Source of the DNA: an uncultured Gammaproteobacteria bacterium | GTDB taxonomy: Bacteria > Pseudomonadota > Gammaproteobacteria > DATFLG01 | Direction: 5' to 3' | Length of the DNA: 64,000 bases | NCBI GenBank assembly: GCA_963830105.1 | Contig: CAWHLH010000003.1 | Coordinates: forward strand, 648,646-712,645 | Part shown: positions 13,769 through 24,788 of the stretch, piece by piece | Position numbering within the stretch: the first letter of the stretch is position 1 | Layout: each line of letters opens with the position of its first letter | The notes under the pieces: model-generated | Told to the model about the DNA's origin: nothing | The model's database searches: none | Seen by the model: only the letters and a program-made list of their open reading frames with translations | Made by a program: the position numbers and the translations under genes

Positions 13769-13823
13769 GGTATCCGATACCTGCGGCGAAAAACTTCGGG
13801 CTGGGTATCCAGCCCGAACAATT

Positions 13824-13899
<76 letters not shown>

Positions 13900-13914
13900 G
13901 AAAGCAAGACGCGA

Positions 13915-13943
13915 ATTCTAAGAGAGCCCCGCGGGGCTGTCAA
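13915..13943 (-). promoter_or_regulatory. Sigma70 promoter for tRNA-Ala/Glu
   Basis: TTGACA-17 bp-TAGAAT on the minus strand. The -35 box overlaps the gltX stop codon. Confidence 0.8.
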
Positions 13944-15367
13944 GAATCCTGTGCGCCGGCGCCGGCGCTATTTCGTATATAGTCTAGCGCCTTAGCGATT
14001 CTCTGCAGAGAGCGTTCCCGGCCGACCAGCTGGACGGTCACATCGATGGGGGGCGAGACCGCCCCGCCAGCCACCGCCACCCGCAGGGGCTGGGCGATCT
14101 TGCCCATCTTGACGCCCAGGCTCTCGGCGGTGTCGGTGACCACCTGATGGATGGCCTCCTGGGTCCAGTCAGACAGGGCACCCAGGGCCTCGGCCAGCCG
14201 TTCCAGGGCCTCCACCGCCTCGCCCGTCAGGTTCTTGCGGGCAGCCTTCTCGTCGTAGCCCTCGAAGTCGCGATAGAAAAAGGCGCTGTTCTGGGCCATC
14301 TCCACCAGGGTCTTGGCGCGCTCGCGCTGGGCAATGACCACATCGGCCAGCTCCGGGGCGGGCGCGGGATCGACGTCCATGCGCCCCAGGTGCACGCTCA
14401 GGTGACGGGCCACATGGGGGGGCTCGCCGCTCTTGATGTAGTGCTGGTTCAGCCACAGCAGCTTGCCGGCGTTGAAGGTGGACGGGGCGTTGTTCACCGA
14501 GCCGATGTCGAACAGCTCGACCATCTCGTCCAGGGAGAAGATCTCCTGGTCCCCATGGGACCAGCCCAGGCGCACCAGGTAATTGAGCAGCGCCTCGGGC
14601 AGGTAGCCCTCGTCGCGGTATTGCATGACGCTGACCGCCCCGTGGCGCTTGGACAGGCGCTTGCCGTCCTCGCCCAGGATCATCGGCACATGGGCGAAGT
14701 GCGGCGGCTCGTAACCCAGCGCCCGCATGATGTTCATCTGCCGGGGCGTGTTGTTGAGGTGATCGTCGCCGCGGATGACCTGGGTGATGGCCATGTCGGT
14801 GTCGTCCACCACCACGGTGAGGTTGTAGGTGGGGCTGCCGTCGCTGCGCTGGATGATCAGGTCGTCGAGCTCGGCGTTGTTGAACACCACCCGGCCGCGC
14901 ACCAGATCGTCGACCACCACCTGGCCTTCCAGGGGGTTGCGGAAGCGCACCACATAGGGCGCATCCGGCGACGGCGGCGTGGCGCCGTTGCGGCAGTGGC
15001 CGTCGTAGCGTGGCTTTTCCTTGCGGGCGAGCTGGCCGGCACGCAGCGTTTCCAGGCGCTCCTTGCTGCAGTAGCAGCGGTAGGCATGGCCGGTGTCCAT
15101 CAGCCGCTGGATGATCGCCCGGTAATGGTCGAAGCGCTCGGTCTGGTAGAACGGGCCTTCGTCGTAGTCCAGCCCCAACCAGGTCATGCCCTCCAGTATG
15201 GCGTTCACCGATTCGGCGGTGGACCGCTCAAGGTCGGTGTCCTCGATGCGCAGCACGAACTTGCCGCCGTGTCTGCGGGCATGGAGCCAGGAGAACAACG
15301 CCGTGCGCGCGCCGCCGATATGCAGGTAGCCGGTGGGGCTGGGGGCGAAGCGGGTGCGTATGGTCAT
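13940..15367 (-). CDS. gltX: Glutamate--tRNA ligase
   Basis: [18 protein letters not shown] (HIGH motif), CYCSKERL and KRLSKRHGA (KMSKS motif). Start MTIRTRF at 15367. Confidence 0.97.
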
Positions 15368-15470
15368 AAGCTGCGGAATCCGGCCGAGGTTGGGGAAAGG
15401 CGCCATTCTACCAAAGAGCGCACAGGCGCGCGTGCCGCTGTGGGCGCCGCAGCGCCGCTGGCGTGGCCGG

Positions 15471-16463
15471 TTAGATGGCGTTGCGCAGGCCCAGTTCCTC
15501 GGGATAGGGCTGCAGGTAGCGCTGGGCCAGAACGTAGGGCTGGGGCGCCCGGCGCAGGTGGTGACGCAGCAGGGTGAGCGGCACCACCAGGGGCACCGTG
15601 CCGTGCCGGTAGGCGTCGATCACGGTCTGCATCTCCGCCTTGTCGTCGCCGCTCAGGGACTGCTTGATGAAGCCGGCCAGATGCTGCACCACATTGGCAT
15701 GCCGGCCGCGGCTGGAGAGGCTCCGCAGGGCGTCCATCAGCCGCGTCAGGTAGGCGTCCTTCAGGGTCTCCAACGGCCCGCAACCGGCCTGCGCAACCAG
15801 CCGGCCGAGCTCGCGCAGCAGGTGGGCGCCGCGGCTGAGGATGATGAACTTGTGCTCGCTGTGAAAGCGCACCAGTGCCGCCGGTGTGTCGGCCGGCGCC
15901 ACCGTGCGGCGCCAGTGGTCGTAGACGAACACCCGCTCGATGAAGTTTTCCCGCAGCAGCGGGTCATGCAGACGCCCCTCCTCCTCCACCGGCAGCCAGG
16001 GCATGCGCTCCATGAGCTCACGGGCGAACAGACCGACCCCGGAGCGCTCCGGCATGCCGCTGTCGGCGTAGACCTTCACCCGCTCCATACCGCAGCTGGG
16101 CGAACCGCTCTTGAGAATGTAACCGCTGATGGCTTCCAGGGCGGCGATGCGCTCGCGGGCGAACCGAGCCATGGTATCGGTCACGTCCAGGCCGGGATTC
16201 CGCGCCCCCACCAACCGGGGTCCGTCCGCCCGTCCGCTCAGACGCAGCGCCGGACGCGGGGCGCCCAGTCCGATGGCCAGTTCGGGACACGCGGGCACAT
16301 AACGGAAGTAGCGGGCCAGCACATCGGTCACCAGCGCGTTGCGCTTGTGACCGCCGTCGAAACGCACCTTCTGACCCAGCAGGCAACTGCTAACGCCCAC
16401 CGGTATGGCCGCCTGCTCCTCTGTGGCGGCAGCGACTTCTTCAGGACCGTTCGATTTCTTCAT
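15471..16463 (-). CDS. ybgA: DUF523 (TudS-like Fe-S desulfidase)-DUF1722 fusion (YbgA/RudS-like)
   Basis: [65 protein letters not shown] and YLQPYPEEL motifs. ATGA overlap with the upstream gene. Confidence 0.9.
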
Positions 16464-17221
16464 AGCGCAGACACCATCACCCAGGCCAGACACATGGCAA
16501 CCACCGCGGTCAGACCGCGGCGCAGACGCAGATACCAGCCGGGCAGCCAGCCGCGGCCCAGCAGCCACTCGTCCCACAGATAGACACCGGCAAAGCCGCC
16601 CAGCAGCAGCGCGGCCGCCCCGGCCTCGGACAGCGCATAGGCCGCCCAGGCCACCAGCGGCGCCAACACGCTGACGCCATACAACAGCCAAGCCCGGGGG
16701 CCGGCCACCATGGCCGGCAGCCCCGTGCCCCATTGCACACCGCCCAGGAAGGCCAGGATGACCGCCCCGTAACTGAGGGTGAACGCGTACCAATCCACCG
16801 GCCCCGACCCGTTTGGCGCCAACAGGGCCGACGCGCCGGCCACGAACGGCAACAGCCCCCCGAGGCCGAGCCACAGAGCGGGCAGCGGCAGCGGCGCGCC
16901 GCGCTGCGCGGAAGGGTCTTGCAGGCCGACGGCCAGCTCCGGCTCGCCGCCCACGAAACGGCCGTCCAGAAACACCTGCGGCAGCGTCGACCAGCGGGTG
17001 AACGCGCGCAGCTCGCCGAACCGCCGGCGCATGGCGTCCGATCCCATGCCCATGCGCTGAATGCCGTACTCCACACCGGCGCCGCGCAGGCGCTGCTCCA
17101 ACTGGCGGGTATCGGTGAGCTCCGAGCAGAACACCACCACTCGGGTGCGGGTGACCAGTTCCAGCAGCCAAGCCGGCAACGATCCCCCCTCGACGGGCGG
17201 TTCAGCACCCATCGCGACCAT
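16460..17221 (-). CDS. Glutaredoxin-like domain fused to a DUF3429-like membrane domain
   Basis: Grx motif WSTLPQVFLDGRFVGG with a single Cys (FCSE), then LGLGGLLPFV, YGAVILAFLGGVQWG and GWLPGWYLRLRRGLT. GGAGG RBS before ATG 17221. Confidence 0.78.
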   Translation of the reverse strand: MVAMGAEPPVEGGSLPAWLLELVTRTRVVVFCSELTDTRQLEQRLRGAGVEYGIQRMGMGSDAMRRRFGELRAFTRWSTLPQVFLDGRFVGGEPELAVGLQDPSAQRGAPLPLPALWLGLGGLLPFVAGASALLAPNGSGPVDWYAFTLSYGAVILAFLGGVQWGTGLPAMVAGPRAWLLYGVSVLAPLVAWAAYALSEAGAAALLLGGFAGVYLWDEWLLGRGWLPGWYLRLRRGLTAVVAMCLAWVMVSAL

Positions 17222-17395
17222 GGTCAGACCTCCTGCGCCCCTGCCGCGGCCGGCATTCGCTGTTCGGACCGGCCGAGTCGATGTCCAGGACATAATGCCA
17301 TCCTCCATATTCGGAAACCAGCCGATCCGCTCGCTTGATTTATCCATAAGCCACTGACGAAATTAAGAAAATCGACCATATTTCGATCCCTCTTG

Positions 17396-17439
17396 CAATC
17401 TGACATAAACTATACAATACTTCGACAACACTTGTACAG
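17396..17439 (+). promoter_or_regulatory. Four tandem 11-bp direct repeats with TnnACA core (CarH/LitR-type operator)
   Basis: CAATCTGACAT, AAACTATACAA, TACTTCGACAA, CACTTGTACAG, with cores at 17400, 17411, 17422 and 17433 (exact 11-bp phase). AT-rich spacer between divergent operons. Confidence 0.65.
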
Positions 17440-17473
17440 TGCAATCGGAAAAGCGACACAGGACGGACATGAC

Positions 17474-18835
17474 ATGGCATTCGACAGCGGACTGTATTGC
17501 GCCCACCGCCCGCGGCTGGCGGTGGTTGGCACCGGCATCTCCGGACTTGCCACGGCCTGGCTGCTGCGCCAGCGCTACGACGTCACCCTCTTCGAGCGCA
17601 ACGACTATGTCGGCGGCCACACCCATACGGTCGCGGTCGACGGTCCCGACGGGCCGGTGGCGGTGGACACGGGTTTCATCGTGTTCAACCGACGCAACTA
17701 CCCGCACCTGAGTGCGCTGTTCGGCCACCTGGGCATTGCCAGCCAGCCCAGCGACATGTCCTTTGCCGCATCGGTGGATGACGGGCGCATCGAGTACGCC
17801 GGCAGCGGACTGGGTACCCTGTTCGCCCAGGGCCGCCACTTGGTCAGCCCGCGCTTCTACGGCATGCTGCGGGACATACTGCGGTTCAACCGGCACGCCA
17901 CGCGGCTGCTGGCGCAGGGCTGGGACGAACCGACCAGCCTCGGGCTGTTTCTGAAGCGTCTCGGCCTGGGGGACGCCTTCCGCGACCACTATCTGCTGCC
18001 CATGGCGGCCGCCATCTGGTCCTGCCCCTGCAGCACCATGCTCGACTTTCCGGCCCACAGCCTGCTGCGGTTCTTCCACAATCACGGCCTGCTGGGGCTC
18101 TCAGATCGGCCCCAGTGGCGCACCGTCAGCGGCGGCAGCTGGCGCTATGTGGGCCGGCTGCTGCAGGACCTGAACGCGGTGCGCTGCAGCACACCAGTGC
18201 GCGCGGTGGTCAGGCGCACCGCCGGCCTGGACGTCATTACCGATGACGGTGCCAGCCGGCCCTTCGACCAGGTCGTGGTGGCCACCCACGCGGACGAAGC
18301 CCGCACCCTGCTGGCCGATCCGGACCCGCTGGAAGGACGCCTGCTGGGCGCCTTCCGCTACCAGCCCAACCGTGCCGTGCTGCACACCGATGCGCGGCTG
18401 ATGCCGCGTCGCCGTCGGGTCTGGTCGGCGTGGAACTACCTGGCGCGCACGGACGCGCCCGACCGTGAACCGCGGGTGTCGGTCACCTACTGGATGAACT
18501 GCCTGCAGCGCCTCACCGTGCCCACCCCCTATCTGGTGTCCCTCAACCCGCTCACCGAACCGGACCCGGACAAGGTGCTGCGTGAGATGGCATACACCCA
18601 CCCGGTACTGGACGGGGCCGCCATGGCCGCCCAGCGCCGCCTCGGCGAAATCCAGGGCCGCGGCGGGCTTTGGTTCGCGGGCAGCTATTTCGGCTATGGT
18701 TTTCACGAGGACGGCATGCGCTCGGCGGTTCAGGTGGCGCACGCCCTGGGGGCGGAGCTGCCCTGGGAGCAGCCGTTGGCGCACACGGCGCCCGCCGCGC
18801 CTGCCGGCCTGGCCTGGGAGGGGTCGCGTCCATGA
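17474..18835 (+). CDS. FAD-dependent oxidoreductase/amine oxidase family (UfaD-like fatty acid desaturase)
   Basis: Rossmann motif LAVVGTGISGL, ERNDYVGGHTHT, VDTGFIVFNRRNYP, SDMSFA and GSYFGYGFHEDG. Start MAFDSG at 17474. Confidence 0.88.
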   Translation: MAFDSGLYCAHRPRLAVVGTGISGLATAWLLRQRYDVTLFERNDYVGGHTHTVAVDGPDGPVAVDTGFIVFNRRNYPHLSALFGHLGIASQPSDMSFAASVDDGRIEYAGSGLGTLFAQGRHLVSPRFYGMLRDILRFNRHATRLLAQGWDEPTSLGLFLKRLGLGDAFRDHYLLPMAAAIWSCPCSTMLDFPAHSLLRFFHNHGLLGLSDRPQWRTVSGGSWRYVGRLLQDLNAVRCSTPVRAVVRRTAGLDVITDDGASRPFDQVVVATHADEARTLLADPDPLEGRLLGAFRYQPNRAVLHTDARLMPRRRRVWSAWNYLARTDAPDREPRVSVTYWMNCLQRLTVPTPYLVSLNPLTEPDPDKVLREMAYTHPVLDGAAMAAQRRLGEIQGRGGLWFAGSYFGYGFHEDGMRSAVQVAHALGAELPWEQPLAHTAPAAPAGLAWEGSRP

Positions 18836-19581
18836 TTCTGTCCGGACAAGTGATGCACCGGCGCCTGTTTCCGATGCGCTACCGCTTCACCTATCGGGTG
18901 TTCAGCCTGCTGCTGGACCTGGAGCAGCTGCCGGCGCTGCACCGTGGGCTGCGCCTTTTCTCCCATAACCGCTTCAACCTGTTCAGCTTCCATGACCGCG
19001 ATCACGGGCCGCGCAACGGCACCGCGCTGCGCCCCTGGATCGACGCCGTGCTCGCCGCCCAGGGCATCGACCTCGCCGGCGGCACGGTACGGCTGTTGTG
19101 TTTCCCGCGGGTGCTGGGCTATGTCTTCAACCCGCTCAGCGTCTGGTACTGCCAGCACGCCGACGGCGAGTTGCGCGCCGTGCTGTGCGAGGTCAACAAC
19201 ACCTTCGGGGAAGGCCACAGCTACCTGCTGCACGCCTCGGGCGCCCCCCTGGACTGCCCGGTTCGGGGCCACAAACCCAAGGTCCTGCACGTCTCCCCGT
19301 TCATCGCCATGGACGCACACTACCAGTTCCGGCTGGCCAAACCGGCGTCCAGCCTGTCGGTACTCATCCACGAGTATCAGCACGACGAACTGATGCTGGT
19401 GGCGACGCTCACCGGCCGGCTGCAGCCGTTGACCGACGGGCGCCTGGGCGCGGCGTTCGTGCGCTATCCCCTGTTGACCCTGAAGGTCATGGCCATGATC
19501 CACTGGCAAGCGCTGAAGATCTGGTGGCGCGGCGGGCGCTTTCACCCCAAGCCGGCCCCACCCGAAACGGAGGTTACCTGA
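18832..19581 (+). CDS. DUF1365 family protein (UfaO-like)
   Basis: VMHRRLFPMRYRFTY, LLCFPRVLGYVFNPLSVWYC, EVNNTFGE, KVLHVSPF and IHWQALKIW motifs. Confidence 0.9.
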   Translation: MILSGQVMHRRLFPMRYRFTYRVFSLLLDLEQLPALHRGLRLFSHNRFNLFSFHDRDHGPRNGTALRPWIDAVLAAQGIDLAGGTVRLLCFPRVLGYVFNPLSVWYCQHADGELRAVLCEVNNTFGEGHSYLLHASGAPLDCPVRGHKPKVLHVSPFIAMDAHYQFRLAKPASSLSVLIHEYQHDELMLVATLTGRLQPLTDGRLGAAFVRYPLLTLKVMAMIHWQALKIWWRGGRFHPKPAPPETEVT

Positions 19582-19583
19582 GC

Positions 19584-20807
19584 ATGACGCGCGAACACTC
19601 GGCCACCACCAGCGCCGGCCCGGCCCGATCCTCCGCCAGACCGTCTCTGGGCTGGCGAAGGCTGCTGCGCACGCTGGAGCGGCTGCAGGCCGGCCAACTG
19701 ACAGTGACGCTGCCGGGCGGCGACCGGCACCTGTTCCGGGGCACGCAGCCGGGCCCTTCGGCAACGCTGCACCTGCACTCGGTACGCGTGCTGCTGCGGC
19801 TGCTCGGCGCCGGCAGCGACGGGATGACCGCAAGCCATCTCGCCGGCGAGTGGTCCAGCCCCGATCTGGCCGCGCTGCTCGAACTCGGCGCCCGCAACGA
19901 ACACGCACTCGGCGCCGTTGCCAACACCGCGGGCCTGGCGGGGCTCTGGCAGCGCCTGCGCCACCGGTTGCGCGCCAACACCCGGCGCGGCAGTCGCCGC
20001 AACATCGCCTACCACTACGACCTGGGCAACGATTTCTACCGCAGCTGGCTGGATGAGACCATGAGCTATTCCTGCGCGCTGTTCAGCACCGCGGACCAAC
20101 CCCTGGCGGACGCCCAGCGGGCCAAGTACCGGCGCATGCTGGCACTGATCGAGCCGGCGCCGGGCGCCCACATCCTGGAAATCGGCTGCGGCTGGGGCGG
20201 ATTCGCCGAGCACGCCGCCCGCCAGGGCTACCGGGTTACCGGCATCACGCTGTCCAGCGCACAGCTCGCCTATGCCCGTGCGCGCCTGCAGGCGGCCGGC
20301 CTGTCCGAGCGTGTCGACCTGCAACTGCTGGACTACCGGGATCTGCAGGGCCGCTTCGATCACGCGGTGTCCATTGAAATGTTCGAAGCGGTCGGGGAAC
20401 GCTACTGGGACACCTTCTTTGCGACGCTGGCGCGCTGCCTGCGCCCGGGCGGTCGGGCCGCGCTGCAGGCGATCACCATCGCCGACGCCTATTTCGAACG
20501 CTACCGCCGCGGCGTGGACTTCATCCAGACCCATATCTTCCCCGGCGGCATGCTGCCCAGCCCGACGGCTTTTGCGACCCATGCCCGGCGCGCCGGTTTC
20601 GCCGTCACCGGGACCGCTTTCCGCGGCGCGGACTACGCCCGCACCCTGGCCCTGTGGCAGCAGCGTTTCCACGCGCTGTGCGGGCAATTGGACCCGGCCG
20701 CCTATCCACCCCGCTTCCAGCGGGCCTGGAACTACTACCTGGCCTACTGCCAGGCGGGCTTCCGCTGCGGACGCATCGACCTGATGGACACCCGCCTGGA
20801 AACCTGA
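19584..20807 (+). CDS. cfa: Cyclopropane-fatty-acyl-phospholipid synthase family SAM methyltransferase (UfaM-like)
   Basis: SRRNIAYHYDLGNDFY, LDETMSYSCALF, LEIGCGWGG, SIEMFEAVGE, IFPGGMLPS and WNYYLAYCQAGF motifs. Confidence 0.92.
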   Translation: MTREHSATTSAGPARSSARPSLGWRRLLRTLERLQAGQLTVTLPGGDRHLFRGTQPGPSATLHLHSVRVLLRLLGAGSDGMTASHLAGEWSSPDLAALLELGARNEHALGAVANTAGLAGLWQRLRHRLRANTRRGSRRNIAYHYDLGNDFYRSWLDETMSYSCALFSTADQPLADAQRAKYRRMLALIEPAPGAHILEIGCGWGGFAEHAARQGYRVTGITLSSAQLAYARARLQAAGLSERVDLQLLDYRDLQGRFDHAVSIEMFEAVGERYWDTFFATLARCLRPGGRAALQAITIADAYFERYRRGVDFIQTHIFPGGMLPSPTAFATHARRAGFAVTGTAFRGADYARTLALWQQRFHALCGQLDPAAYPPRFQRAWNYYLAYCQAGFRCGRIDLMDTRLET

Positions 20808-22120
20808 TGTTGCGAGCGACGCGTTCCCACCTGCTGCTCTATGGCCTGCCGGCCGCGCCCCTGGCGGTGGCCGGACTGCCGCTTTATGTGTACCTGCCGG
20901 GTTTCTACGTGGATCAGCTGGGCATGGGCGCGGCGCTGGTGGGCGCAGTGCTGCTGGCGGCCCGCCTGTGGGACATGGTCACCGACCCGCTGGTGGGCAT
21001 GTTGGCCGACCGGCTGCCGGCGCGCCTCGGCCGGCGCAAGCTGCTGATGGCCGCGGGCGCGCCGGTGATGCTGATCGGTGTGTGGCAGCTGTTCGTACCG
21101 CCGCCGGCGGCCGGGCCGTGGCACCTGCTGATCTGGAGCCTGGTGCTGTATCTGGGCTGGACCCTGGTGACGGTGCCCTATTACGCCTGGGGCGCCGAGC
21201 TCAGCGATCAGTATCACGAACGCACGCGCCTGAGTGCGAGCCGGGAAGCCTTCGTGATGATCGGTACGGTATGCGCATTGGGACTGCCGACGCTGATGGG
21301 TGCCGGCGGCGAGGCCGAGCGCGCGCTGCACACCCTCGCCTGGATCGCAATCCTCGCCCTGCCCGCCGCTCTGGCAGTGGCGCTGTTGCGGGTGCCCGAT
21401 CCGCCGGCCGCGGGCGGCGCACCGTTGTGGCGAGCGTCCTGGCGCACGCTGGCCGCCAACCGGCCATTCCTGCGGCTGCTGACTGCGTTCGTGCTCAACG
21501 GCATTGCCAACGGCCTGCCGGCGACCCTGTTCGTACTCTATGTGCGTTATGTGCTGGAAGCACCGCAGTGGACCGGACCCCTGCTGCTGGTCTACTTCCT
21601 GGCCGGGGCGCTCGGCCTGCCGCTGTGGGTGCGCATCGCCCGGCACCGGGAAAAACACAAGGTATGGGCACTGTCCATGGTGTGGGCCAGCATCGCCTTC
21701 CTGTGGGTACCGGCCCTGGGCAGCGGCGACACGACCGCGTTCCTGGTGATCTGTCTGCTCTCGGGTCTGAGCCTGGGCGCGGACATGGCACTGCCGGCGG
21801 CCATGCAGGCCGATGTGCTCGACTACGACCGCGCCCGCGGCGAGGAACGACCCGCCCTGCTGTTCGGACTGTGGGCGATGGCGGTCAAGCTGGCGCTGGC
21901 CCTGGCGGCGGGCATCGCCCTGCCGCTGCTGGAATGGACGGGCTTTCGCGCCGGCGCTGTCAATACGCCCACGGCGCTCACCGCATTGGCTCTGCTCTAC
22001 GGACTGCTGCCGGTGCTGCTCAAGCTCGGCGCGGTCAGCCTGGTGTGGCAGTTCCCCGTGGGCCGGCGCTGGCACCACGCCTTCCATACCCAACCGGCCT
22101 CCCATTCCGCTGCGGGGTGA
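20807..22120 (+). CDS. MFS transporter (MelB/GPH-like, MFS_2)
   Basis: About 12 TM segments, ARLWDMVTDPLVG, VPYYAWGAELS..YHERTRL and GLWAMAVKLALA. Confidence 0.85.
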   Translation: MLRATRSHLLLYGLPAAPLAVAGLPLYVYLPGFYVDQLGMGAALVGAVLLAARLWDMVTDPLVGMLADRLPARLGRRKLLMAAGAPVMLIGVWQLFVPPPAAGPWHLLIWSLVLYLGWTLVTVPYYAWGAELSDQYHERTRLSASREAFVMIGTVCALGLPTLMGAGGEAERALHTLAWIAILALPAALAVALLRVPDPPAAGGAPLWRASWRTLAANRPFLRLLTAFVLNGIANGLPATLFVLYVRYVLEAPQWTGPLLLVYFLAGALGLPLWVRIARHREKHKVWALSMVWASIAFLWVPALGSGDTTAFLVICLLSGLSLGADMALPAAMQADVLDYDRARGEERPALLFGLWAMAVKLALALAAGIALPLLEWTGFRAGAVNTPTALTALALLYGLLPVLLKLGAVSLVWQFPVGRRWHHAFHTQPASHSAAG

Positions 22121-22125
22121 ACGTC

Positions 22126-22671
22126 ATGACCATCACACGCCTGTTGTTTCCGCTGCTGGCCGCATTCGCGGCCGCGGGGTGCTCATCCATGGATATCCGC
22201 AACTTCGAGGGCTCCCAGCCGGAGTTTCGCATCGAAGATTATTTCGACGGCCAGAGCCGGGCCTGGGGCATGTTCCAGGACCGTTCGGGAAAGATACGGG
22301 CCCAGTTCACCGTCGACCTGAACGGCCAGTGGGAAGGCGACGAGTTCGTGCTGCGCGAGGACTTCCACTACCGGGACGGACGCCGCGAGCAGCGCATCTG
22401 GCGCATCCGCAAAGTCGATGCCCACCGCTACGAAGGCCGCGCCGGCGACGTGGTGGGCGTGGCCGAGGGTCGGGCGTGGGGGCAGGCGCTGAACTGGCGC
22501 TACACCCTGCGCCTGACCGTGGGCAAACGCCAATGGGACATGCACCTGGACGACTGGATGTTCCTGCAGCCGGACGGCGTGCTGATCAACCGGGCGGTGA
22601 TGCGCAAATTCGGGTTCAAGGTGGGCGAGATCACCATTGTCTTTCAACGGGGCGCGAGTGCCCTTAACTGA
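22126..22671 (+). CDS. DUF3833 family lipoprotein
   Basis: Lipobox AAAGC, EDYFDGQSRAWGMFQDRSG, EDFHYRDG, ALNWRYTL and DDWMFLQPDGVLINRAVMRKFG. Confidence 0.85.
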   Translation: MTITRLLFPLLAAFAAAGCSSMDIRNFEGSQPEFRIEDYFDGQSRAWGMFQDRSGKIRAQFTVDLNGQWEGDEFVLREDFHYRDGRREQRIWRIRKVDAHRYEGRAGDVVGVAEGRAWGQALNWRYTLRLTVGKRQWDMHLDDWMFLQPDGVLINRAVMRKFGFKVGEITIVFQRGASALN

Positions 22672-22694
22672 CGGAACAAACGGAGGCAGGCGAC

Positions 22695-23312
22695 ATGTGG
22701 CGATACGGGTTGATGGTCCTGACAGCCGCTTTCCCGCTCTGGGCGCAGTCGGCCGAGCCGCAGTTCCCGGAACGCATCGAGCTGGCCGACACCGAACTGG
22801 CCCTGGCGGGCAGCGGCACCTTCCGCTACCGCGGACTGTTCCGGGTGTACGCCGCGGCCTTCTACGTCAGCCCCGGCACCCCGCCCGCCCGGGTGCTGGC
22901 CGCCGACGTGCCCAAGCGCCTGGAGCTGGTCTACCAGCGCGCGGTGTCCCGCGAGGCGTTCATACAGGCCGGCGAAGCGGTGCTGGCCCGGACCCTCGCA
23001 CCACCGGCCCTGTCGAAGATCCGCCCGGCGCTGGACACCCTGCATCGCCACTACCGGGATGTAGCCGACGGCGACCGCTACAGCCTCACCTATCTGCCGG
23101 GGCGCGGCACCACCCTGCATCTGAACGGCCAGGCCCTGGTGACGCTGGACGATCCCGCTTTCACCGCCGCCTACTTCGCCATCTGGGTGGGAGGCGCGCC
23201 CATCGACGGCGCGCTGCGCAGACAGCTGCTGCAACGGCTGCCGTCCGAGCGCGCGAGCCTGCAGCCGACCGTCACCGTGCCGTCAGGCGGCGGCGCAGCC
23301 AGCGCAGGATGA
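22695..23312 (+). CDS. Chalcone isomerase-like (CHI-fold) secreted protein
   Basis: Signal peptide, LAGSGTFRYRGLFRVYAAAFY, LELVYQR, DVADGDRYSL and FTAAYFAIWVG. Confidence 0.8.
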   Translation: MWRYGLMVLTAAFPLWAQSAEPQFPERIELADTELALAGSGTFRYRGLFRVYAAAFYVSPGTPPARVLAADVPKRLELVYQRAVSREAFIQAGEAVLARTLAPPALSKIRPALDTLHRHYRDVADGDRYSLTYLPGRGTTLHLNGQALVTLDDPAFTAAYFAIWVGGAPIDGALRRQLLQRLPSERASLQPTVTVPSGGGAASAG

Positions 23313-23718
23313 CTCCCACCACCGGCAACTGCTCGTAGACCTGCTCGGCGGCATCCCAGTAGTCCACGTGCTCGGTCACGCGCCCGTCGGGTGAGAAGCA
23401 TACCCGGCTCACGCCCTCGATCCTGCGGGCGAGCCGTGGACGGAACCGGCGCAGGCGGAATTCGAACTGCCAGTGCATCAGCACCGCATTGTCCCCCACG
23501 GCCACATCCAGCACCCGGAAGCCCGGCTCGATGCAGGTGCGGTACATGTGCGCGAACACGGCGGTCATGGCGGCGACCCCGCGCACGTCGTTGAAAGGGT
23601 CCTTGAAGTGCACGTCCGCGGCCACATAACGGTCGAGGTCCGCGAGCGTGTGTTCCGTGAGCGCCTCGAAGAAACCGGCGTAGGCCCTTGCGCGATCGAC
23701 AAGGCCGGCGTCGGTCAC
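23272..23718 (-). CDS. Nuclear transport factor 2 / SnoaL-like protein
   Basis: YAGFFEALT, YVAADVHFKDPFNDVRG, GRVTEHVDYWDAAEQVYEQLP. GTGA overlap with the SDR gene. Confidence 0.85.
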   Translation of the reverse strand: MTDAGLVDRARAYAGFFEALTEHTLADLDRYVAADVHFKDPFNDVRGVAAMTAVFAHMYRTCIEPGFRVLDVAVGDNAVLMHWQFEFRLRRFRPRLARRIEGVSRVCFSPDGRVTEHVDYWDAAEQVYEQLPVVGVILRWLRRRLTAR

Positions 23719-24473
23719 GATCCCACCATGCGCCGGGTCAGCCCGAAGTACCAGCGGTATGGCAGGCACCGCAGCAGCTTCATCAATACCGCCATGCGCC
23801 AGGGAAACACAACCTCGAAGCGGGAGCGGCCCATGCCGGCCATGATCGCGCGGGCCGCCTGTTCAGGACTGATCAGAAAGGGCATGGGAAAGGCGTTTCT
23901 GGCGGTCAGCGCCGTCTTCACGAAGCCGGGGTTGATCACATGGATGGCGATCCCCGCCGCCGCCAGTTCGGGCTGCAGGGACTCGGCGAGGTTGATCAGC
24001 GCCGCCTTGGTGGCGCCGTAGGGTGCCGCCCGCGGCAGCCCCCGATAACCGGAAACGCTGGCGTTCACCCAGATCGAGCCCGTCCGCCGGGCCCGCATGC
24101 TGTCGAGCACAGCCGAGATGCCGTGCACCACGCCGAGGTAGTTGACCTCCATCAGCTGCCGGAACAGACCCGGATCGAAGGCCTCCAGCGGCATGGGCCG
24201 GTAGTCGCCGGCATTGAACACGGCGCAGTCCAACGGTCCCAGCTGCGCCTCGATACGCGCCGCCGTGGCGGCCATGGCGGGCAGATCGGTCACGTCCACG
24301 GGGAAGGGGTGCAGGCTTCCCGCATCCCGGCCGCCCTCGCTCGCCACCTGCGCGAGCCGCTCGGCGCCACGCCCGGAAATGGCGACCCGCCAGCCGTCGG
24401 CCGCCATGGCGAGCGCCAACGCCCGACCGATGCCACCGCTGGCCCCGGTGATCCACGCCACCTTGCCCGACAT
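23715..24473 (-). CDS. Short-chain dehydrogenase/reductase
   Basis: WITGASGGIG, NAGDY, VNYLG, catalytic YGATK and NPGFVKTALT. Start MSGKVA at 24473 with a GGAGG RBS. Confidence 0.92.
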   Translation of the reverse strand: MSGKVAWITGASGGIGRALALAMAADGWRVAISGRGAERLAQVASEGGRDAGSLHPFPVDVTDLPAMAATAARIEAQLGPLDCAVFNAGDYRPMPLEAFDPGLFRQLMEVNYLGVVHGISAVLDSMRARRTGSIWVNASVSGYRGLPRAAPYGATKAALINLAESLQPELAAAGIAIHVINPGFVKTALTARNAFPMPFLISPEQAARAIMAGMGRSRFEVVFPWRMAVLMKLLRCLPYRWYFGLTRRMVGS

Positions 24474-24522
24474 TCCGCGCACCTCCCAAAACGGCGCCCC
24501 GCCCACCAGCACCCGGGGTTAT

Positions 24523-24545
24523 TGTAGTACATTTGTCTAGGACAA
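24523..24545 (-). promoter_or_regulatory. Weaker putative TnnACA site upstream of SDR-SnoaL
   Basis: Minus strand reads TTGTCCTAGACAAATGTACTACA, with TAGACA and ACTACA 11 bp apart, about 50 bp upstream of the SDR ATG. Confidence 0.4.
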
Positions 24546-24608
24546 TAAAGCGACCGGCGGCGGGCCTCACGATACAGCCTCGGCGACGCCGGGCCGGGCA
24601 TGCGCAAA

Positions 24609-24637
24609 TTGACGGCACAAGCAGCAGACCGTAGAAT
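24609..24637 (+). promoter_or_regulatory. Sigma70 promoter for tRNA-Val
   Basis: TTGACG-17 bp-TAGAAT. Confidence 0.78.
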
Positions 24638-24653
24638 TCCACTGCTTCGAAAC

Positions 24654-24728
24654 GGGCGATTAGCTCAGCGGGAGAGCACTGCCTTCACACGGCAGGGGTC
24701 GCTGGTTCAATCCCAGCATCGCCCACCA
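24654..24728 (+). tRNA. tRNA-Val (CAC)
   Basis: GGGCGATTAGCTCAGCGGGAGAGCACTGCCTTCACACGGCAGGGGTCGCTGGTTCAATCCCAGCATCGCCCACCA. Confidence 0.96.
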
Positions 24729-24788
24729 ATTAAATCAGCAAGGTACAGACGCGCCCGCCATCTGTACGAAAAGCGATAGGAAAAAGTG

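Follow-up and report, generated by a model that had tools for sequence, protein, structure and literature searches.

In a 252-bp spacer between two divergently oriented gene arms of an uncultured gammaproteobacterium, four tandem 11-bp repeats were found that, judged by comparison with known operators, very probably constitute a direct-repeat operator of the CarH/LitR family over the predicted core promoter of a ufaD/ufaO/ufaM-like operon. Binding of this array by the single CarH protein encoded in the genome is likely, and we assign a probability of roughly 0.55 to the reading that the array is the working operator of this resident CarH. It would represent a candidate switch by which light controls a furan-fatty-acid-like lipid operon, in a gammaproteobacterial lineage that has been little sampled, and B12-dependent class I CarH control would, beyond carotenoids, also cover genes for membrane lipids and tRNA repair. 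As a comparative by-product, two operator dialects emerged that appear to track two LitR/CarH clades; in the present genome, a site of one dialect falls within the other's regulon. Positions given without a genome identifier refer to the window, i.e., the whole stretch of 64,000 nucleotides that was analysed.

Direct reading of the sequence placed the ACA triplets of the array at 17403, 17414, 17425, and 17436, in exact 11-bp steps, with the array finishing 35 bp ahead of the in-frame ATG (17474) of the FAD oxidoreductase (FADox). The phasing, the coordinates, and the gap to the start codon given in a preliminary description of the window were thereby borne out. The same description had counted four TnnACA cores, which is correct for the last three; the first (dr1) has C in place of T and is a pseudo-repeat. 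Compared to the published CarH repeat nnnnTnnACAn, the array comprises three perfect repeats and one pseudo-repeat (score 15/16), as expected for class I CarH operators, which consist of at least three tandem 11-bp repeats in a fixed register and tolerate pseudo-repeats. Of the four repeats, dr1 and DR3 have GACA cores, 22 bp apart, whereas DR2 and DR4 contain TACA cores. The spacer (17222-17473) is indeed AT-rich, with 39-45% GC versus ~67-70% around it. Furthermore, -35/-10-like hexamers were found on both strands within the array, all of them being consensus matches only: the minus-strand promoter is the sole promoter-like hit in 17150-17550 (9/12 matches vs 0.1 expected from shuffles), and the plus-strand hexamers, which at 8/12 matches stay under the scan threshold, were found by eye.

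Features of the array, its promoters, and the surrounding genes and palindromes (positions in the window).
Feature	Position	Strand	Details
Candidate CarH/LitR-family operator	17396..17439	+	four tandem 11-bp repeats
dr1	17396-17406		core CTGACA (17400-17405)
DR2	17407-17417		core TATACA (17411-17416)
DR3	17418-17428		core TCGACA (17422-17427)
DR4	17429-17439		core TGTACA (17433-17438)
Predicted sigma-70-like promoter of FADox operon	17411..17440	+	-35 TATACA (17411-17416), 18-nt spacer, -10 TACAGT (17435-17440)
Predicted divergent sigma-70-like promoter	17409..17438	-	-35 TGTACA (17438-17433), 18-nt spacer, -10 TATAGT (17414-17409)
FADox operon	17474..23312	+	ufaD/ufaO/ufaM-like; Pfam
FAD amine-oxidase-type oxidoreductase (FADox)	17474-18835	+	Pfam
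DUF1365	18835-19581	+	Pfam
CMAS/Cfa-type methyltransferase	19590-20807	+	Pfam
MFS_2 transporter	20804-22120	+	Pfam
DUF3833	22105-22671	+	Pfam
Chalcone-isomerase-like	22695-23312	+	Pfam
Divergent arm	15471..17221	-	
Grx-like/DUF3429 fusion	16460-17221	-	Pfam
RudS-like DUF523 (2-thiouracil desulfurase) + DUF1722	15471-16433	-	Pfam
Short-chain dehydrogenase (SDR)	23715..24473	-	convergent with FADox operon; Pfam adh_short, E = 6.5e-47
Perfect 13-bp palindrome ATGTCCAGGACAT	17281..17293		candidate operator, 61 bp upstream of DUF3429 ATG (17221)
Palindrome core TGTCCAGGACA	17282-17292		on DUF3429/RudS arm side
Palindrome TTGTCTAGGACAA	24533..24545		candidate operator (core 24534-24544), ~60 bp upstream of SDR start
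Block with array, FADox operon, and SDR	17180..24600		7.4 kb; no counterpart in same-genus genome G001

The genes of both arms were confirmed by Pfam. The names ufaD, ufaO, and ufaM used for the FADox operon follow the Rhodobacter pathway and are putative here. RudS, whose architecture is shown by the DUF523 + DUF1722 protein of the opposite arm, functions as a 2-thiouracil desulfurase (PMC11417400). An Rfam search over the spacer found no RNA family, with tRNAs nearby only. For the transmembrane DUF3429 part (16414-16937) of the Grx-like/DUF3429 fusion, no matching DNA exists in G001, where the Grx-like gene is shorter (tblastn covers residues 7-104 only); the fusion may be specific to the present lineage.

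To place the array within the genome (3.98 Mb), both strands were scanned throughout for the consensus nnnnTnnACAn. The array is the only perfect threefold TnnACA repeat at 11-bp phase as well as the only fourfold array scoring at least 14/16. With a stricter five-position form of the repeat, nAnnTnnACAn, the array scores 19/20 and is likewise unique. The chance rate of the 11-bp phasing was estimated from 200 dinucleotide-preserving shuffles of all AT-rich DNA in the genome (no more than 50% GC in 100 bp; 507 kb in 4454 segments). Since these shuffles yielded a mean of 0.06 perfect threefold arrays per genome and a fourfold array of at least 15/16 in 0/200 cases, the array is not a by-product of AT-richness.

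Moreover, the repeats are conserved in orthologous operons, the arrays of which correspond to the present one in location and, in part, in sequence. We fetched 80 FADox-orthologue loci (49-62% identity) from Ectothiorhodospira, Thioalkalivibrio, Chromatiaceae, Halothiobacillus, and others. The order FADox-DUF1365-CFAS is kept in 89/89 related loci, and many FADox-orthologue loci have a LitR-family gene within 4 kb. When 360 bp around the FADox start were scored in 78 loci with a threshold of at least 13/16 for four phased repeats, 16 loci reached it, compared to a mean of 0.21 loci (maximum 2) in dinucleotide shuffles of the same 78 regions and to none in coding controls inside the FADox gene. 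Read directly, the orthologous arrays consist of two to five T(G/A/T)TACA hexamers in 11-bp register, 30-120 bp before the FADox start, as in Thioalkalivibrio (TGTACA/TTTACA/TGTACA/TGTATA) and Halothiobacillus (TGCACA/TATACA/TATACA); in T. denitrificans, the array is located in a spacer common to a divergent DUF3429 gene. GACA cores are rare in these arrays and account for two of the four cores here.

The preliminary description had found no suitable regulator in the window and had therefore proposed action in trans. In agreement with this, a Pfam B12-binding scan of the genome identified exactly one CarH/LitR protein (312 aa, G000:C3:559020-559958; MerR_1, B12-binding_2, and B12-binding), whose gene is unlinked, ~106 kb from the array. 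Neither the lack of a CarH/LitR homologue in the genome nor the lack of conserved repeats in orthologous spacers, both named in the preliminary description as refuting its reading, was thus observed. Among PDB entries, the protein is best matched by T. thermophilus LitR (3WHP) and CarH (5C8D/E/F), and alignment to TtCarH/LitR revealed conservation of the Trp and the Glu-His of the W-x9-EH motif as well as of the ligand His (H-E-x-G). The protein combines the MerR-type winged helix, the four-helix bundle with W-x9-E-H, and the Rossmann B12 domain with ligand His that characterize class I CarH, with all cofactor motifs present. A second LitR was found neither by a Pfam MerR_1 scan of the genome nor by tblastn with 17 LitR-family proteins from three clades, and the remaining five MerR_1 proteins are small (124-191 aa) metal/redox types. 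The carH gene is flanked by a divergent gene for a secreted fasciclin-domain protein and a convergent gene for a methyl-accepting chemotaxis protein (G000:C3:558190-558744 and 560194-561386); the fasciclin gene and carH have a palindrome-bearing spacer in common, and the former may be light-regulated as well.

The element that the carH promoter shares with the cluster around the array is this palindrome, not the repeat array. The motif TGTC[CT][AT][GA]GACA has five matches in the genome, three of them at carH and in the array's cluster. One copy is located 108 bp upstream of carH (G000:C3:558912), and because the palindrome, TGTC(C/T)AGGACA, also stands at 17282 and 24534, the cluster can be placed in the CarH regulon. 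The palindrome before the SDR is part of TGTAGT-N5-TGTCTAGGACAA (24523-24545), in which an 11-bp-phased upstream half-site is added; the array itself contains no TGTC-N3-GACA palindrome. The single operator that had been proposed for both arms is thus not supported, the cluster having at least three separate candidate sites, and the RudS arm and the SDR would more probably be controlled through their own palindromes than through the array. The palindrome at 17281-17293 also holds a minus-strand in-frame ATG (17291-17293) with GGAGGA 7 nt before it, an alternative DUF3429 start that would make the protein 24 codons longer; if it is used, the operator would overlap the start codon. The palindrome family has two more members in the genome, CTGTCCAGGACAA (G000:C9:128615, ~330 bp ahead of an EttA-like ABC-F gene in a ~1-kb gene-poor stretch) and TTGTCTTGGACAG (G000:C3:114590, intergenic), which may mark additional regulon members. 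At the only phr gene of the genome (C10, divergent from hemH), neither the array nor the palindrome motif was found, and photolyase was rejected as a co-regulated gene.

Similar palindromes were found at the carH genes of related genomes. Close CarH orthologues (76, 64, and 53-57% identity) have one or two palindromes just upstream of carH, typically 42 bp apart, and overall the palindrome is present at the carH promoter of 7/9 orthologues (44-76% identity) and of the Chromatiales MAG G419, with none in G298 and G122 (49-50%). The promoter-proximal palindrome covers the -35 hexamer (TTGTCC-N17-TATAAT) and is preceded at 11 bp by TGTCAA, giving TGTCAA-N5-TGTCC in carH promoters of the resident clade. 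In the resident carH promoter, two 11-bp-phased cores (TGGACA-N5-TTGACA, bottom strand) are embedded in the palindrome design instead of forming a plain array. The RudS promoter of G001 contains TGTACA-N5-TGTCTAGGACA, which reads TAGACA-N5-TGTACA on the bottom strand. Among genomes with the resident CarH clade, only G122 is informative for the region upstream of FADox, which carries TGTCTAGCTAGTGTCAA with 11-bp TGTC repeats (TGTCTA-N5-TGTCAA); in G296 and G153, FADox lies inside an operon. Judging by these promoters, the resident CarH clade seems to have as its native operator a palindrome, TGTCC-W-GGACA, accompanied by GACA/TACA repeats at 11-bp phase, unlike the textbook repeat array. No threefold array was found at a relevant promoter in 11 other genomes with this clade, their three hits being located before fabA, inside a coding region, and at a contig end. 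The first of these, a perfect threefold GACA-type array (TCGACA, TTGACA, TGGACA) just upstream of fabA in G148 (G148:C3:389516-389543, L144), where the resident CarH clade is present, could be either chance or a lipid-related CarH target.

Distant CarH homologues (29-33% identity), by comparison, have plain T(G/A)TACA arrays upstream. Both regulator types are encoded in one cluster of G419 (G419:C19:38500-47200, L142). There, one regulator is a resident-clade CarH (44% identity) whose gene carries two palindromes and comes first in the run carH-gpx-rudS (gpx, glutathione peroxidase). The other, a second LitR here termed B-type (DBD signature FPIR..TGV.P.TLRAWERRYG) and located beside SDR and FADox, has TGTACA-N5-TATACA upstream. 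This photoprotection cluster represents a natural two-switch arrangement of palindrome-type CarH and repeat-type LitR. Before its FADox stands TATACAATACTTATACA, which over its first 12 bases is identical to window 17411-17422, so that the 12-mer TATACAATACTT of the array recurs at the site before the orthologous gene. In Halothiobacillus DCM-1, the array is perfect and a LitR is not detected at E <=1e-9, yet the genome encodes an unlinked 301-aa B-type LitR, upstream of which CATACAAAACCTATACA matches its FADox array; in Hydrogenovibrio, the T(G/A)TACA motif is paired in the same way with the autoregulatory site of a B-type LitR. Sites of B-type LitRs co-occur with the array dialect in G419, G413, and G404, and it is only in the B-type clade that plain T(G/A)TACA repeats serve autoregulation at a regulator's own promoter. 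Neither a B-type LitR nor a remnant of one was found in the present genome by tblastn. As candidate operators, plain T(G/A)TACA arrays track the B-type clade and palindromes the resident CarH clade, a two-dialect model based on a few dozen promoters assessed by eye and by simple scans. The presence of a LitR as a predictor of array score gave no discrimination across 50 genomes (11/16 vs 22/34), a comparison in which divergent LitRs escape the E-value cut-off, as in G413 and G404. A third LitR-like clade was observed beside SDR-FADox clusters (L020, L021, L022, L044, L051, L059, and L087), with a MerR HTH 44-49% identical to that of the resident CarH; in place of a B12 domain, it has a C-terminal domain of ~230 aa in which a CECPHHM motif is conserved.

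The array is located in a 7.4-kb block that G001 lacks. In a blastn comparison with the window, contig C176 of G001 (L163) aligned to 13822-16414 (87%), 16937-17179 (82%), and 24600-24738 (91%), with nothing between. This contig contains, in order, gltX, RudS (84% aa identity), the Grx-like gene, a spacer with TGTACA-N5-TGTCTAGGACAT, and the tRNA that corresponds to window 24654; from the Grx-like genes to the tRNA there are ~280 bp, which carry the palindrome. As the G001 spacer element is homologous to window 24523-24545, it would correspond to an ancestral CarH-type promoter of the RudS arm that now stands before the SDR. FADox is absent from G001, G002, and G003, and a carH orthologue is kept in G001 and G003. 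Most simply, the alignments are explained by an insertion here, which is probable, rather than by a deletion in G001. The inserted block brought, or later gained, the array and the 17282 palindrome, and the array may be an imported operator. However, the GC content of the block matches that of the genome, which argues against a very recent arrival.

Several explanations other than a CarH operator were considered. The array might not be a dedicated regulator site at all, its phasing being a by-product of back-to-back sigma-70 promoters with -35-like hexamers that happen to be 11 bp apart: TTGACA is itself a TnnACA sequence, all four cores resemble it (4-5/6 matches), and DR2 and DR4 are used by the promoter-like pairs on the minus strand (scan) and on the plus strand (by eye). 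Nevertheless, this is quite improbable given the scarcity of such arrays in shuffled AT-rich DNA, the excess of phased arrays in orthologous spacers (16/78 vs 0.2 expected), and the position of the array, whose ~250-bp spacer belongs to the very gene cluster that is under the control of LitR proteins elsewhere. We consider it very improbable that a different regulator binds the array, whether sigmaE-ChrR (the Rhodobacter system), a LitR-like protein of class II, or an unrelated transcription factor. The ufa genes of Rhodobacter are sigmaE-dependent. The preliminary description had already set this system aside, and a Cupin_7 search of the genome found no ChrR-type anti-sigma factor, the hits being a double cupin (303 aa) that has no ZAS motif and a cupin of generic type (160 aa), with no adjacent sigma gene. 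T(G/A)TACA hexamers are also used by class II LitR sites (PMC9758184), but there they are arranged as hexamer-N12-hexamer, whereas TATACA (17411) and TGTACA (17433) are N16 apart and no pair at N12 exists. The small metal/redox type of the other five MerR proteins likewise speaks against another regulator.

A more serious alternative, which we regard as possible albeit rather doubtful, is that the array is a genuine LitR-type site of the B-type T(G/A)TACA dialect that was imported with the FADox-SDR block and is now orphaned, its cognate regulator being absent. In that case, the FADox operon would be expressed constitutively or light would control it only indirectly, and the repeats would persist as -35/-10 elements or through recent transfer. 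The absence of the block in G001, and of FADox in G002 and G003 as well, would fit this explanation, as would the co-occurrence of the array dialect with B-type autoregulatory sites, the 12-mer shared with G419, and the failure to find a B-type LitR or remnant here. The same observations weigh against the resident CarH, since the arrays of G419, Halothiobacillus DCM-1, and Hydrogenovibrio pair with a regulator that is missing here and an operator whose block is missing in G001 may have come without its regulator; in addition, the array lacks the palindrome of most resident-clade carH promoters, and 11 genomes of the same CarH clade have no relevant threefold array. On the other hand, four near-perfect repeats exceed both the two in G419 and what promoter function would need, two of the cores are of the GACA type preferred by the resident clade and rare in orthologous arrays, the same block carries a resident-clade palindrome at 17282, and its GC content does not point to a very recent arrival. 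Binding by the resident CarH is favored because it is the only LitR/CarH member in the genome, because the palindromes tie the cluster to CarH, because resident-clade operators combine 11-bp-phased GACA and TACA cores, because half of the array's cores are GACA, and because characterised class I CarH proteins show marked plasticity, accepting any TnnACA, including TTGACA (PMC9304148). A tentative extension, possible but less than probable, is cross-dialect regulatory capture, in which the palindrome-type CarH took over an imported furan-lipid operon with the T(G/A)TACA array of the other clade and the array evolved into a GACA/TACA hybrid, with one head-to-tail dimer on dr1/DR3 and the other on DR2/DR4. 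If true, this would be a natural example of operator swapping between regulator lineages via the flexibly tethered CarH DNA-binding domains, and the palindromes would constitute an undescribed operator class for AdoCbl photoreceptors.

If the resident CarH acts on the array, an AdoCbl-bound CarH oligomer would occupy it in the dark, probably with dr1 and DR3 read through their GACA cores and DR2 and DR4 through their TACA cores. The bound protein would occlude the -35 and -10 elements of the FADox promoter and possibly those of the divergent promoter. Upon illumination, the cofactor would be photolysed, the CarH oligomer would dissociate, and the FADox operon would be derepressed.

Among known systems, the regulons of the class II LitR proteins PplR1 and PmlR2 of Pseudomonas putida and P. 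mendocina, reportedly described by Sumi and colleagues in 2020, share with the present case a light-inactivated MerR-type repressor, targets of the phrB, ufaM, and RudS type, and T(G/A)TACA hexamers over the -35 element. Light control of phrB, ufaM, and RudS genes by LitR-family proteins has already been published for Pseudomonas (PMC9758184, PMC11417400), and the idea of light-controlled RudS and ufa genes under such repressors is less new for that reason. However, class II LitR proteins have no B12 Rossmann domain and sense light via a LOV partner, none is encoded here, and their sites (T(G/A)TACA-N12-TGTA(C/T)A; PMC9758184) have an 18-bp instead of an 11-bp register. The B-type LitR regulons of G419, Halothiobacillus sp. 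DCM-1, Thioalkalivibrio, and Ectothiorhodospira are closer, as they have 11-bp-phased arrays before FADox, in G419 with the same 12-mer; these genomes differ in encoding a matching regulator with the same motif at its promoter, and the GACA type of two of the four cores further sets the present array apart.

The CarA/CarH crt operator of M. xanthus, with inverted and direct 11-bp repeats and a -35 hexamer inside a repeat, resembles the resident carH promoter, and its palindromes were later re-read as DR1-dr2-DR3-DR4-dr5. It differs in sequence, spacing (two palindromes 42 bp apart), and regulon, and a CarS-type antirepressor is absent here. Finally, the array itself resembles the CarH operators of T. 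thermophilus, B. megaterium, and Myxococcales (PMC9304148, PDB 5C8D/5C8E), with the experimentally defined repeat 5'-nnnnTnnACAn-3': T. thermophilus CarH has three tandem repeats and B. megaterium CarH four, or three DR and one dr, the repeats overlap -35 or -10 elements, and class I CarH, which also accepts the -35 hexamer TTGACA, can make do with one or two perfect repeats (PMC9304148). The tandem repeats and the combination of three perfect repeats with one pseudo-repeat are found here, promoter-like hexamers are predicted within the array, and an AdoCbl-type CarH with Wx9EH and ligand His is likewise encoded. What distinguishes the present system from these is a regulator gene ~106 kb away, a carH promoter based on palindromes instead of a plain array, and a presumed target that is a furan-fatty-acid-like lipid operon rather than carotenoid genes.
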